64,000 bases of DNA, taken from NCBI RefSeq assembly GCF_030013205.1, contig NZ_CP122648.1; one strand, 5' to 3'. The notes under the pieces are model-generated. The model was not told where the DNA came from and searched no databases. It worked only from the letters and a program-made list of their open reading frames with translations. The stretch comes from Escherichia coli (GTDB taxonomy: Bacteria; Pseudomonadota; Gammaproteobacteria; Enterobacterales; Enterobacteriaceae). The translations under genes were made by a program, and so were the position numbers. Positions 51,089 through 58,364 of this stretch are shown here, piece by piece. Numbering within the stretch: the first letter of the stretch is position 1; every line of letters starts with the position of its first letter.

Positions 51089-51575
<487 letters not shown>

Positions 51576-51874
51576 TTTGTTCTCCTTAATTATGTAAGGA
51601 GAATTTGATCATGTATAAGCAATAAAAAACAGCTTTAGATAATGAGGAATATCTCAATTTTTAAACATAAAATGTGAATTATTTAGTACAAAAAAGCAGC
51701 GTTACGTAATCTTTCCCTGACTAATATATAGTTAAATGCAATCAACTTATTATTCATCGATGCATTTTATAGAATCATCAATGGCTATAATAGTACTATT
51801 AACTCTCAATTTTATATTTTTATCATCACTACAAATATTAACTGAATTTATATCAATGATTTTTATCTTTTATT

Positions 51875-52189
51875 TTATTTTATTTTATTTGCAGTTTCAA
51901 TGCAATCAGCGGCAAGTTGGTGTGAATTTAGATTTTTCAGATATGGTCTTATGATCTTTCCCTTACTTAATAAATAGCATGTATAGGATTCGTAAAGTCC
52001 AGCATCTATTTTGTACCTCATTATATTAGATAAGGATGTGAGAAATTCCTTGTTATCATTCGCAGTCATATATGCCAGTCCGAGTTCAGCCTCTGCGGCC
52101 TTACAGGAAAAATAGCTAAGTGAACACGCTTTTCGTCCCTCTTTAGTACTGGCTGATATTAGTGCCCATAATATTGCTTTGTCTGCCAA
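51875..52189 (-). CDS. hypothetical small protein downstream of the orphan rhs C-terminal fragment (possible orphan immunity gene; TTG start)
   Basis: 104 aa ORF in AT-rich DNA; assigned on position only. Confidence 0.3.
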   Translation of the reverse strand: MADKAILWALISASTKEGRKACSLSYFSCKAAEAELGLAYMTANDNKEFLTSLSNIMRYKIDAGLYESYTCYLLSKGKIIRPYLKNLNSHQLAADCIETANKIK

Positions 52190-52277
52190 ATCTAACTCTC
52201 TCTGAAATTGTCTTGCAGTAAATGCACTCGCAGAAATAGAGAAAAAAATACAATTGTTAATAACTTTGCCATATTTT

Positions 52278-52870
52278 TTAGTCCGTAACTGTTAATGTGC
52301 TATCTGGCTCTGAAAATATTAACTCATTTAATTTTTGCATGTCATTAGATGAACCAGTTATACAACCCTCGGAACAGAATCGAGGTCCTAAAGACGGACC
52401 GAAAGCGTTTAAATAACTATGTATTGAAAATCCATTACGATTATAATTTCCTGTATTAACTGACGGTACTAATCGTATGCCGTCAGGTTTTCTATTGCTT
52501 GCTCCCGGGTCATTAACATTCCAACTCCACAGGCCTTGAGGTATTGGCCCTCTATTTATAAATGTGTACAACGGGGATTATTTTTACATTGCATATTATT
52601 ACCAGAAGCGACTGGAATACTAAGCACATCATAAAAATTATCATCACCTGGTATATCTGAAACACACGAAAGCATACCTAAAGTTATGCTGTATAAACAT
52701 GTGGCTAATCCCAAGGGGATCGATTCCAGAAATCGGGTTCAACGGATACTGATAAAAATTCCACCTACCTTCCAGCCCAATCGGAGCCTGAGTGTTATAC
52801 CGCCCCTGCTGCGGTTAATGTTACCGATAATAGTTATAGTACAGCCCTGATTCATCATCATACTACTGCT
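52278..52870 (-). pseudogene. orphan Rhs C-terminal fragment: core-end remnant with DPLGL motif plus divergent tip, apparently frameshifted
   Basis: Minus strand translates …[24 protein letters not shown]…; the DNA at 52700-52870 is a diverged copy of the main Rhs core 3' end at 54650-54810. Confidence 0.6.
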
Positions 52871-52895: not shown

Positions 52896-53363
52896 TTACG
52901 GATTCTCCTTATTCTTCCTTCTATCCATTCGCTTTAGCTTTAGCTTTTTGAGCTCTTGAAATTTGCTCTTTGCATCAATATTACCGTTATTTACAGCGAA
53001 TTCCATCCAATAAATAGCTTTATTCAAATTATAATATTCTGATAATATTGGATTTGTATCCGATAAAAAAACCCCATAATTAAACTGCGCTGTAACATTC
53101 CCCTGAGATGCTGATCTTTCTAAGTATTGCAATTGTTTGTAAATGTTATTTTTAGTAAAGCAGTAATATTGATATAGTCGAAATGATGCCTCTGAATCAC
53201 CATGTTGTGATTTATACTTCAGTTTCATCAACTTTTCTTCACTTAAATCATAGGTCATTGCTGTAGACCCCATCATACTTTCGTTTTGTTTTATTTTCAC
53301 ATCAGCACCATGCAATTGAAAAATAAAAGAGAAATAAAAAAATAGTAACAAGCATGCTTTCAT
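52896..53363 (-). CDS. signal-peptide-bearing Sel1-like repeat protein; candidate immunity protein for the Rhs C-terminal toxin
   Basis: 155 aa ORF; N-terminal MKACLLLFFYFSFIFQLHG looks like a signal peptide; Sel1-like segments (SASQGNVTAQFNYGVFL, AIYWMEFAVNNGNIDAK); starts 9 nt after the reconstructed Rhs stop. Confidence 0.5.
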   Translation of the reverse strand: MKACLLLFFYFSFIFQLHGADVKIKQNESMMGSTAMTYDLSEEKLMKLKYKSQHGDSEASFRLYQYYCFTKNNIYKQLQYLERSASQGNVTAQFNYGVFLSDTNPILSEYYNLNKAIYWMEFAVNNGNIDAKSKFQELKKLKLKRMDRRKNKENP

Positions 53364-53478
53364 ACATCTACAACCTATCTTATATCACTGGGTTTTTCTG
53401 GCGTACCTTGCATATTAGAAATGGGGTGCCCAGATGGCCCATATGTTATCCAATTACCAAGGTCTTTTGTTGTTATAG

Positions 53479-54246
53479 GGTAATGACTCCAACTTACTGA
53501 TAGTGTTTTATGTTCAGATAATGCCCGATGACCTTGTCATGCAGCTCCACCGATTTTGAGAACGACAGTGACTTCCGTCCCAGCCTTGCCAGATGTTGTC
53601 TCAGATTCAGGTTATGCCGCTCAATGCGCTGAGTATAACGCTTGCTGATAACGTGCAGCTTTCCCTTCAGGCGTGATTCATACAGCGGCCAGCCATCCGT
53701 CATCCATACCACGACCTCAAAGGCCGACAGCAGGCTCAGAAGACGCTCCAGTGTGGCCAGAGTGCGTTCACCGAAGACGTGCGCCACAACCGTCCTCCGC
53801 ATCCTGTCATACGCGTAAAACAGCCAGCGCTGACGTGATTTAGCACCGACGTAGCCCCACTGTTCGTCCATTTCAGCGCAGACAATCACATCACTGCCCG
53901 GTTGTATGCGCGAGGTTACCGACTGCGGCCTGAGTTTTTTAAGTGGCGGAAAATCGTGTTGAGGCCAACGCCAATAATGCGTGCACTGGCGCGACATCCG
54001 ACGCCATTCATGGCCATATCAATGATTTTCTGGTGCGTACCGGGCTGAGAGGCGGCGTAAGTGAACTGTAGTTGCCATGTTTTACGGCAGTGAGAGCAGA
54101 GATAGCGCTGATGTCCGGCGGTGCTTTTGCCGTTACGCACCACCCCGTCAGTAGCTGAACAGGAGGGACAGCTGATAGAAACAGAAGCCACTGGAGCACC
54201 TCAAAAACACCATCATACACTAAATCAGTAAGTTGGCAGCATCACC
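53479..54246 (-). mobile_element. insAB: IS1 insertion sequence, 768 bp, with insA (53916-54191) and insB (53494-53997), flanked by an 8-bp target-site duplication tgttatag
   Basis: InsA ([30 protein letters not shown]…) and InsB translations; terminal repeats ggtaatgactccaacttactgat and ggtgatgctgccaacttactgat; direct repeat tgttatag at 53471-53478 and 54247-54254. Confidence 0.9.
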
Positions 54247-57200
54247 TGTTATAGCCATTAGATCCTTATTTGAATTAAGGTTCGTTGGTGCTGTTAGCAC
54301 TGTATCCATTTTTAACTTACCATTAGTTCCTCGCCCCCACCACGTCCATAGCGTGTCAGGTCCTATTACATTTGTATGTAACTCTTTAGCTAATTGGCTA
54401 GCAAATGAATTTTGTCCTTTACCTGTATTACAAGAAAATAACCAAACTGTCATCCCATCTTTATAATTCCCATCAAATTTAATTAGATATGCTAGATCTT
54501 TAGCTGTCATGATACTGCGCGTTGCGGATTCAATAGATGTGGGGGTACCATGCCCCCCGATTGTGAAAACGCCTGGGATATTAATCTCATCAGCTACAGA
54601 ATGGATAAGATCACTTTCGGGGTATAAATTTATATCAACCAAACCTTGCGGATCTACATTTATGACCGGATTCAACGGATACTGATAAAAATTCCATCCC
54701 CCCTTCAGCCCAATCGGATCCTGAGTGATATACCGCCCCTGCAGCGGGTCATAATAGCGGTGGCGGTTGTAATACAGGCCGGACTCCTCATCATACTGCT
54801 GACCCGGCAGGCGGATGAGCTGCTGCAGCTGGTGCGGGTTCTCTTCATTCAGCAGGTTGCCCCACTCATCGTATTCTGCGTACCACGCTGTTGCCCCTTC
54901 CGTGCTGACAAGCGCCAGCGGCAGGCCGCGATGGTCGCAGTGGTACAGGTGGATTTTTCGCGCCGGCGTGTACACCGGGTCCATCTGGTTTTGTATCTGC
55001 TCCACCGTCAGGCCGCACGATGCCAGCCAGCGGCGGCTTTCCTCACTCACCCGGTCAGCCAGGATTTCACTTTCCAGCCGGTCGAGCATCTGCACCAGCA
55101 CCGGCGGGAACACCATACTGCCACCGTCTTCACCGCCGGACTGCTGAAGGGCATCCGCCAGGCTGCGGCGCTGCGTTTTCGCCAGCTCACCGGTGGCGGT
55201 TTCGACCCTGATGAGTGGCGTGAAGCTCCCCGGCTGATAAACCGTCTGGATGCGGGTTCTGTCGTTCTGTATCGTGGTCAGCCGGTCGCCGTCCCAGCCG
55301 TACCAGGTCACTTCCGGTTTCCGTGACAGCGACATCCAGCCCGTCAGGTCCCGTTCACGCCGCCACACCCGTTTTGCCACCCTGCGGCCCAGCGGGTTTC
55401 AACCAGCGGCTCTGCATATTGTGTCCGCGTGTAGTGCACCAGCCGGTGCCGGCTGTCGTAATGGTACCGGTGAGTCCGCTCATCATCCGTGCGGATAACC
55501 CCTTCCGGGATGAGGTCGGTTTTCTCCGTCAGCCTGCCGTGACGGTCATACCGGTAAAGATAGTGCGCGTCACGGGCGATACGGTTATCCGGCCACATGC
55601 TGAGGGTGCTGTCCGGGTGCAGCTCCGGGTCGGGCAGGCGGTTGCCCGCCGGGTCCGTGGCATACGGGATGCGGATATCCAGATTCGCTGCGGTGGTGTG
55701 GACGCCGGTCAGCCTGCCGGTGTCGCTGTAGCTGTAACTCCGGGTCTGGCGCGGGCTGCTGATGCGGATGAGTTCGCCGTTGTCGTTCCAGGTGTAATCG
55801 CGGTCATACTGCAGGCTGTTCAGGTGCTGGCTCTGTAACTGCCCGGCAGGGGTGTAAGCGGTGGTGAGTTCATAACGGCCGAAGCTGCGCAGCGTTTCCC
55901 GGTGCAGGCGGTCGCGGGTGTACTCCACCAGCGGTGTGTCGCCGAGTTTCATGCCTGACAGCCAGCCGCTGCCGTAGGTCAGCCATTCCACGGCGGGCAG
56001 GCTGTCCGGTATACAGCGGTTCGCCAGTCCCTGCGTGTTGTAAGCGTGTCTGGTTTCATGCTGCCAGAGCAGTGCTTCCGTCTGCGGATGATGCACCGTC
56101 TGGCGCTCACCGGTCAGGCGGCCTTTCTCATCATACCCGTAATGCACCGTCACCCGGTGGCCTTCGCTGAGATGGCTGATGCCTGTCAGCCAGCCGCGTT
56201 CGTCATACTGCCACTGCTCTGCAGGTTCACCCTTCACGGTGCGGTGAGTGAGGCGGTCTGCTTCGTCATAGTGCCAGTGGGTGACCAGCCCCTCATCCTC
56301 GCTGCGGATAAGTTTACCGGTCAGGTCGTGGTGATAACGCTGTGTGCGGCCGTCAAAGCCGGTTTCCTGTATCAGCCGGTCGAGTACATCGTAACGGAAG
56401 GTGGTGTGGCTGCCGTTTTCACTGGTCAGGCGGATGACCCGTCCGGCAGCATCGTATTCCATACTGCGCGTCAGACCGCCCTGTGTGGTACGGATGGCCT
56501 TTCCCCACGCATCGTACTGTGTCCCGTTTCTGCTGCCGTCCGGGGCAATGACGGCGGTCAGGTCACCGGCGGCGTTGTATTCATACCGCGTTTCATGGCC
56601 CTGCGTGTCTTTCACCGCAATTAACTGTCCACGGCTGTCGTATGCGCGGTACTGACTCAGCCCTTCCTCGCGGTGCACCGCCGTCACCTGACCAAAACGG
56701 TCATGGTCATAACGGGTTACATAACCGGAACAGTCAGTGACGGTCAGCAACTGACCGTAACGGCTCCATGTCATGGTTTTCCGGCTGCCGGTGGCATCTT
56801 CCGTTGCGCAGGGTAAGTCACTGTGTGGATTATCATAACGGTAGCGGGTGATATCGCCGTTGTGTGCGGTTTCCTGAATCAGACGGCCGGATTCATCATA
56901 TTTGCGGCGCAACTCCAGCCCGTCAGTCCCGGTGGCTGACGTTAACTGGTTGTGGTGGTTATAGTAAAATGCCGATGCCCTGCCATCCGGTGTGGTGATG
57001 CGCGTGATGAGTCCCGTCACCACATCCGGGCTGTACTCAGTCGTCCGGCCTGCGGCATCCGTCTGTGCCTTAAGCCCGCCCACCGCGTCAAACTGACTCT
57101 GCGTGACGCTGCCGTCCGCGTGTTCCTTTTTCACCACCCGCTTCAGCCCGCCTTCGCCCTGCGTGTGCAGCACTTCACGGCGGTCCAGACTGTCGGTGAT

Positions 57201-58364
57201 GGTGATGCGGTCTTTCTCATACTGATACGTGTAGCTTAAGCCTGCCGGGTTTAGCTGTTCTGTCACCCGCCCGTCGCTGTCGTAACGGTAACGGATTTCC
57301 GGCCGGCCCGTGTGACGGTGCGCCACCATCCGGCCCCGGTATTTATCATCGTAAGTAAAGCTGCGCACCTGTGTATTGCTGCGGTCATACACCGCCGCCA
57401 GTTCGCCGCGTGGCGTCCAGCCATAGCGCACCAGCGGCGCGGCAGGTAAATTCTCCGGGTATTCCGGGTCGTGCGTCAGCCACACGGCAGACAGACGGAT
57501 GCCGTTGTCCCGGCCATATTCGGTGTAACCCGGCAGGGTATCAGGAAAAGCGGACGGTTCCGTCCCGCCGGAAGAGGCCTGCTGCCGGGCTTCTTCTGCC
57601 CGCTGCGCCTGCGTGGTCAGTACCAGCCGGAAGTGACGCCCGGCACCATCCGTCACGCCGGTGATTTCGCCGCTGAATTCGCCGCCAGCCTCACGGTGAA
57701 ACGTCTGTGTGCGCCCGAAGCGGTCCACCAGCCCGGTCAGTACCCGGTACGGCGGCAGCGGCGCGGGCAGCACCTCATCCGCTTCCGGCACCCGCTCACA
57801 CCAGCCGAGCAGCCACCACGGCCCCTGCGGACTGTTTGTCGCCAGATAACGATGCGGACTTAAGCGGAGTTCTTCCGGCAGCGCCTGCCAGAGTGCGGCC
57901 AGCCGGTGACCTTCATCCAGTTTCAGGACACCGCCACGCACCAGCCAGAGTGATTCGCTGCGGCTGTAACCGTCCTCACCGGGAAACAGGTGCTCAAAAT
58001 ACAGGCTTCTGCCGCCGTTATCACTGAGTATCAGTGTGTTATCGCGCAGCTGTAAGCGGATATCCGCAGGCATTTTCCAGCCGGGGCCTAGGCTTCCCAC
58101 CGGCGCGGGCGTTTTTGTCCGGTAACTGCTGTAGGTGCGGGAGAGGATGAACGGCAGCGGGCCGGGCAGTGCAAGGTCTGTCTCGCCGGGAAGGACCTTC
58201 GCACCGAGCAGCGGATTGACCGGATGGCCGGACGTCACCCCGCCGGGGCACACCGAACAGGCCACGCCGGTGGGGGCACCAATACGTACCCCGGCTGAAC
58301 CCTGGACAATGCTACCGCCATACTGCGTCATGTCGCCCTGACGCGCCGCCGGTTTTCCGCTCAT
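54247..58364 (-). pseudogene. rhs: Rhs-family YD-repeat protein, disrupted twice: frame switch near 55391-55400 and IS1 insertion into the C-terminal tip
   Basis: N-terminus [44 protein letters not shown] repeats; frame A stops at 55344 while frame B carries [17 protein letters not shown]…DPQGL and the tip; the last 8 codons of the tip ORF are IS1 terminal-repeat sequence. Confidence 0.85.

Follow-up and report, generated by a model that had tools for sequence, protein, structure and literature searches.

Among the systems described so far, the closest to the locus reported here are the Rhs elements of Escherichia coli K-12, of which RhsA and RhsB correspond to the clade I rhs genes of Jackson et al. 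2009 (PMC2935791). The gene of interest lies on the minus strand (58364 to 54220) of a 64,000-nucleotide (nt) stretch of E. coli contig NZ_CP122648.1 (assembly GCF_030013205.1), called the window from here on, where it adjoins the nik operon and changes frame at 55398|55397. It shares with the K-12 elements RhsA and RhsB a position next to nikR, a GC-rich core (about 60–68% GC), an AT-rich tip, YD repeats, the RHS core domain PF03527 and a DPxGL motif. Downstream orphan tip fragments and a remnant of ISAs1 (H-repeat) are likewise found with K-12 Rhs elements, and the peptide encoded at the junction discussed below is common to K-12 RhsA. The nik-adjoining locus is the RhsB position on the K-12 map; unlike K-12 RhsB, however, the open reading frame (ORF) in the window is broken twice, and the tip carried by the full-length core is of the YibJ type and not the RhsB tip. 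In K-12, the yibJ-yibG found at the rhsA locus is a displaced orphan with a pseudogene annotation, whereas a full-length rhs gene would have carried it as its active tip in the ancestor of the window's lineage. Our reading, to which we would give a probability of about 0.93, is that this is an rhs toxin gene of a porcine E. coli of the O139:H1 sequence type 1 (ST1) kind, killed by a 16-nt deletion in its core and by an insertion of IS1 in its tip.

The frame in which the gene begins (frame A) starts with an ATG at 58364, runs to ...YAEPLVETR and then, out of frame, through 15 more codons until the TGA at 55346-55344; the shift falls after residue 989, and translation ends at 1006 amino acids (aa). 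Frame B opens directly after a TGA at 55401-55399, passes DPQGL, and ends at 54220 with the IS1-encoded residues GDAANLLI and a stop. On the minus strand, the junction between the two frames reads GCA GAG CCG CTG GTT GAA ACC CGC TGG GCC. An earlier, sequence-only reading of this stretch had placed the switch at about 55391-55400, with the same two frames on either side of it, and had attributed it to a frameshifting deletion of 16 nt. The ORFs and the minus-strand sequence agree with its account of the frames, and the deletion could be recovered by comparison with CFSAN018748, a Danish swine isolate in which an uninterrupted 4230-nt gene (WP_107235553.1, 1409 aa) occupies the same nikR-rhs-yibG-orphan-ISAs1-yhhJ context. 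Pairwise alignment to this nik-locus allele leaves a single 16-nt gap, between window positions 55398 and 55397, where the intact allele has 16 extra nt and reads GTTGAA AGCCGCTATCTTTACG ACCCGCTGGGCC; the gap is also seen against two intact kdp-locus paralogues, those of W13-16 and CFSAN018748. The 16-nt deletion is real and lineage-specific. In total, the window differs from the CFSAN018748 nik allele by this one gap, by IS1 with its 8-base-pair (bp) duplication, and by 39 substitutions. When the 16 nt were restored in silico and IS1 was removed together with one repeat copy, a 1409-aa ORF resulted that is colinear with WP_107235553.1 and differs from it at 18 residues. The intact allele at the same locus and this repair uphold the proposal that a single rhs gene has been disabled by two separate lesions, which lie ~1.15 kilobases (kb) apart.

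The surroundings of the missing 16 nt suggest how they were lost. In three intact comparators (the nik-locus and kdp-locus genes of CFSAN018748 and the kdp-locus gene of W13-16) the site reads GAA AGCCGCT ATCTTTACG ACCCGCT, that is, a 5' direct repeat AGCCGCT and a 3' direct repeat ACCCGCT that agree at 6/7 positions and of which the 3' copy was kept. The sequence-only reading was therefore right to place direct repeats at the flanks, but the repeats are not two perfect copies of ACCCGC, given that the 5' copy is AGCCGCT in all three comparators. A version with perfect ACCCGC repeats and an ancestral "ETR" was rejected, as the intact alleles and K-12 RhsA encode ESR with AGCCGC; K-12 RhsA likewise encodes ...VESRYLYDPLG. 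Judging from these alleles, the Thr of "ETR" is a product of the fusion and not ancestral. The deletion would have occurred by slipped mispairing, with the strand carrying the 3'-repeat copy re-pairing at the 5' repeat and the 3' copy being retained.

The second lesion is IS1, which cuts the gene at tip residue 131 and separates the last 31 tip codons from the remainder. Its terminal repeats are GGTGATGCTGCCAACTTACTGAT and GGTAATGACTCCAACTTACTGAT. The minus-strand octamer CTATAACA flanks the element on both sides and is present as a single copy in the intact CFSAN018748 allele; in fact, the BLAST blocks against the nik-locus segment of that strain (L002) overlap by exactly 8 bp, at L002 7413-7420. 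The element has the features expected of IS1, namely a length of ~768 bp, imperfect terminal inverted repeats of ~23 bp, insA plus insB', and an 8-bp duplication that we checked against the empty site, and RefSeq labels the identical element an IS1 family transposase. IS1 target duplications are usually 8 or 9 bp (PMC12065110), and nothing about this copy sets it apart from ordinary insertional inactivation by IS1. The flanking octamers and the empty site confirm what had been proposed from the letters of the window, an IS1 in the 3' end of the tip with a tgttatag duplication, and translation shows that the tip ORF does end in GDAANLLI as had been claimed.

Near the 3' end of this tip, three independent IS1 insertions in unrelated strains fall within 31 nt: the one in the window (54247), one in CUPS04 (L009 1610) and one in XD35 (L010 1631). 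The CUPS04 and XD35 insertions affect the rhsA-locus orphan copy and lie 10 and 31 nt from the window insertion site, and the duplication in XD35 is of 9 bp, TAACATATG. The AT-rich stretch at the 3' end of the tip looks like a local hot spot for IS1 targeting.

We propose that the ancestral gene encoded a 1409-aa Rhs polymorphic toxin with a PAAR-motif N-terminus, a YD-repeat shell, an RHS core with DPQGL and a 162-aa YibJ-type toxin, and that it was followed by a YibG-type Sel1-repeat immunity gene. No toxin is expected from this locus, because the frame-A product, as a consequence of the deletion, would end too early to include the RHS core domain, the DPQGL cleavage motif or the toxin. Transposition of IS1, with its 8-bp target duplication, would have cost the last 31 toxin residues along with a conserved strand motif, and because the cut removes two predicted beta-strands, this lesion on its own probably inactivates the tip domain. 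Delivery of an active toxin should already fail with either of the two lesions by itself. A second rhs gene acquired the deletion in a sub-lineage, through recombination between rhs cores. What the locus holds today is not a single uninterrupted ORF: it is frameshifted at 55398|55397, interrupted by IS1 at 53479-54246, and flagged as a pseudogene by RefSeq.

The distribution of both lesions was established in 5426 complete E. coli genomes, using 55150-55650 (501 bases) as a megablast query, an 80-nt probe over the deletion junction and a 200-nt probe over the tip/IS1 junction. Seventeen genomes were identical to the query over 501 bases, while the other matches listed span 516-517 bases. The same 17 genomes, and only these, were matched end to end by the 80-nt probe, which in others aligned just to the first repeat, and in one piece by the 200-nt probe. 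With the junction probe, no genome was found in which the left flank is followed by ACCCGCT without the deletion. The reconstructed empty IS1 site was present in 3422/5426 genomes at an identity of at least 99%, and 3,800-odd other genomes with this core retain a single frame. All 17 double-lesion genomes are from pigs or wild boar and come from several countries, France and Japan among them. They include W13-16 and P15-25, two edema-disease strains of type O139:H1 ST1 for which PacBio RSII long reads (50x) were used and whose published chromosomal inventory includes a type VI secretion system (T6SS) and vgrG1 (PMC8798679). Over 6.2 kb, the identity between the window and W13-16 is 99.97%; W13-16 has an IS2 (L001 9127-10355) that separates the orphan fragment from the Imm57 pseudogene and is absent from the window, which therefore comes from a different member of the lineage. 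Since RefSeq marks both the frameshift and IS1, annotating a pseudogene, "RHS element core protein, frameshifted", and then an IS1 transposase, the feature had already been recognised by automated annotation. Exact-sequence look-ups of deposited proteins gave no match to hypothetical "deletion-only" C-terminal products, and in the literature on Rhs with yibG, on rhs gene conversion and on rhs pseudogenes we found no paper describing this locus. In short, this is an ordinary, already annotated pseudogene that arose by two common mutational routes, to which the spread by gene conversion and the assignment of a fold to the tip are modest additions.

The deletion is not confined to the nik locus. 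Three pig isolates from Iwate, Japan (EC556, EC571 and EC581) show the very same 16-nt loss in the rhs gene between kdp and ybfA, the RhsC position, and this gene bears a frameshift annotation; the 16 nt are still present in the kdp-ybfA gene of the lineage's 14 remaining genomes and of CFSAN018748. We aligned seven sequences. At six single-nucleotide polymorphisms (SNPs) downstream of the deletion, at window-equivalent positions 55273, 55116, 55093, 55006, 54994 and 54982, the kdp gene of the three Japanese isolates has the nik-locus state, while the kdp genes of W13-16 and of the outgroup CFSAN018748 have the kdp-locus state; at 54887 and beyond, every kdp-locus gene is kdp-type, those of EC556 and EC581 included. 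Because the deletion is linked to six nik-type SNPs and followed by a kdp-type flank from 54887, and because the outgroup is kdp-type, we conclude from the alignment that gene conversion, over a tract of at least 0.4 kb, carried the inactivating deletion from the nik-locus to the kdp-locus rhs gene.

Other patches were seen in the same genes. A 12-nt in-frame core deletion (window-equivalent 57685-57674) is common to the kdp gene of W13-16 (L005) and the nik gene of EC556 (L003), and is absent from the window, the kdp gene of EC556 and both CFSAN018748 genes; it is a further mosaic exchange, whose donor may be the third rhs copy. Furthermore, 38 of the 39 substitutions relative to the CFSAN018748 nik allele lie in 57694-56084 (1.6 kb), where the window is the same as the W13-16 kdp-locus core, a block which indicates that rhs cores have been homogenised within the lineage. 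Taken as sequence patterns, these patches point to repeated exchange between rhs cores.

Could the frame switch be a sequencing or assembly error in an otherwise intact core? The sequence-only reading had left room for this, and three core copies per genome match the query and can confuse short-read assembly. However, an identical junction is shared by 17 complete genomes that were assembled independently and come from France, Japan and elsewhere, two of them obtained with PacBio RSII long reads, the 1006-aa frame-A product was deposited independently (STL82383.1, on a 5.04-Mb contig), and base-calling errors do not typically take the form of a clean 16-nt loss flanked by direct repeats; we regard an error as practically negligible and, even if the core were intact, IS1 would still disrupt the tip. 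Nor does it seem credible that the gene works in a split or recoded form, either by -1 ribosomal frameshifting in 55401-55344 or through a separate 386-aa GTG-initiated downstream ORF, even though frames A and B overlap by ~55 nt and a possible GTG start is present at 55380. Programmed frameshifting was rejected upon inspection, as the overlap, read in frame A, has no X XXY YYZ slippery heptamer, and a recoded product would still be without five shell residues and the last 31 toxin residues, which include the conserved motif and two predicted strands. If just the C-terminal fragment were made, it would have neither the N-terminal region nor the shell. All of the 3,800-odd further genomes that have this core preserve one frame.

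A different question is whether slippage at a hot spot produced the kdp-ybfA deletion of EC556, EC571 and EC581 a second time, independently of the one at the nik locus. Direct repeats agreeing at 6/7 positions are present in both paralogues, which makes recurrence mechanistically possible, but the junction is confined to one lineage among all the genomes searched, and on this ground a recurrent deletion hot spot was rejected. The switch of the six linked SNPs (55273-54982) to the nik state, ending before 54887, is moreover the signature of a conversion tract, and kdp-locus deletion alleles with kdp-type SNPs at the six sites were not seen among these genes, so that we consider an independent origin very unlikely and conversion from the nik locus the better account. 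We also considered that the 1006-aa fragment with the PAAR motif and shell might still be made and serve as a toxin-less helper of T6SS spike assembly, in which case conversion would spread a disarmed allele and toxin shedding would be favoured in a pig-adapted clone; this scenario is speculative, and we hold it to be unlikely.

The tip itself is 162 aa long and unlike the core. An exhaustive search returned 562 relatives, many of them at the C-termini of large proteins, and when 48 diverse relatives were aligned the only invariant columns were His30 and Cys70 of the tip (residues 1277 and 1317), the predicted catalytic residues, whose codons are at 54552-54550 and 54432-54430. The IS1 cut removes the predicted beta-strands 137-141 and 147-152, and on its far side there is also a conserved G-x-W motif (G136). 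The AlphaFold model (predicted local distance difference test score, pLDDT, 90.9) has a caspase-like alpha/beta fold. One of the 48 relatives reaches E<=0.001 for Peptidase_C80, and a few weakly match Peptidase_C80, C13, CHAT or DUF4347. To clan CD peptidases such as the C80 cysteine protease domain (CPD) of MARTX, TcdA and TcdB, or Tce1, a DUF4347 effector of the P. aeruginosa T6SS (PDB 9qpe), the tip has a sequence identity of only about 13%; it has no match in Pfam, and none was found in NCBIfam or among PDB sequences, and the Foldseek matches to clan CD are weak and, with E only about 0.02, not significant. We read the tip as a toxin of the clan-CD-type (C80/DUF4347-like) cysteine protease kind, with a protease activity that is predicted from these features. 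Relatives of the tip (window 54639-54247 plus 53470-53378) also occur up to five in tandem in giant proteins of 3000-6800 aa (P0040, P0043, P0048 and others), an architecture unlike that of a terminal toxin tip.

The yibG gene starts 12 nt past the original rhs stop. Once repaired, tip plus yibG is 97.9% identical to K-12 yibJ-yibG over 1275 nt, and the yibJ-yibG module is present at an identity of at least 99% in about 63% of complete E. coli genomes. Although intact in the window, yibG has an internal stop in W13-16 (L001 8288-8755) and a frameshift in EC556 (L003 7984-8450), which is consistent with independent decay after loss of the toxin. The unexplained yibJ/yibG module of K-12 thereby gains a testable prediction, namely that yibJ specifies a cysteine protease toxin of the clan-CD type and yibG a Sel1-repeat protein that confers immunity.

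We acknowledge several points that weigh against this account of a toxin gene killed twice, or against parts of it. Loss of function is deduced from the sequence. The slippage mechanism would have had to work with imperfect repeats, which leave one base of junction microhomology if the ancestor had AGCCGC. No genome with only one lesion was found among the 5426, all 17 carrying both, and both are fixed in one clonal lineage. The protease role of the tip draws on conserved residues and on a moderate fold match, with a Foldseek E-value of ~0.02 and no Pfam match, and the immunity role of yibG is presumed from gene position.

In terms of significance, the O139:H1 ST1 edema-disease clone would have lost one Rhs toxin and a sub-clone two, which adds little beyond bookkeeping. 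The 16-nt junction and the IS1 junction nevertheless make a clean, datable pair of markers for the lineage, and the locus offers a small textbook example of slippage deletion, insertion of an IS element, and gene conversion moving an inactivating lesion between paralogues, all at one toxin locus.

Coordinates of the features in the window and, for the converted patch, in the kdp-ybfA rhs genes of related isolates
Feature	Position	Strand	Details
rhs 5' part, original frame	55399..58364	-	PAAR-motif N-terminus, DUF6531, most YD/RHS repeats, ends ...YAEPLVE; from the ORF list and Pfam, colinear with WP_107235553.1
16-nt deletion junction	55397..55398	-	Lost AGCCGCTATCTTTACG or the equivalent string moved one base
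Out-of-frame tail of the 1006-aa product	55344..55396	-	Stop at 55346-55344
rhs 3' part, -1 frame	54255..55398	-	Rest of shell, RHS core domain PF03527, DPQGL, tip up to residue 1378/1409
Left copy of the 8-bp target-site duplication	54247..54254		tgttatag on plus strand
IS1	53479..54246	- (same orientation as rhs)	768 bp, insA 54191-53916, insB' 53997-53494, 23-bp terminal inverted repeats
Right copy of the 8-bp target-site duplication	53471..53478		tgttatag on plus strand
rhs tip end cut off by IS1	53375..53470	-	Last 31 codons and stop, TKDLGNWITYGPSGHPISNMQGTPEKPSDIR and stop; holds the conserved G-x-W motif and two predicted beta-strands
yibG-type Sel1-repeat gene, presumed cognate immunity gene	52896..53363	-	Intact in the window, 155 aa
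Converted patch in kdp-ybfA rhs	EC556 (L004 7244), EC581 (L007); window-equivalent 55398-54909		Deletion and six nik-type SNPs

With regard to domain content, Pfam gave 11 RHS_repeat matches at E<=0.001 in the 1006-aa part and placed the RHS core domain PF03527 (E 2.8e-16) in the second, shifted-frame ORF, which also contains DPQGL at 54654-54640. A literal P-A-A-R is found at residues 5-8; the Pfam search returned DUF6531 (residues 46-123) and no PAAR profile match. Upstream on the minus strand of the window lie nikR, nikE, nikD, nikC and nikB, and downstream of rhs follow IS1 and the Sel1-repeat gene. Next come remnants at 51141-52861, namely an orphan rhs tip fragment with internal stops, a decayed Imm57-type gene with a frameshift and a truncated transposase of ISAs1 (H-repeat), and beyond these yhhJ. 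CFSAN018748 carries the same remnants beside its intact main rhs gene, and their decay is for this reason older than both rhs lesions.

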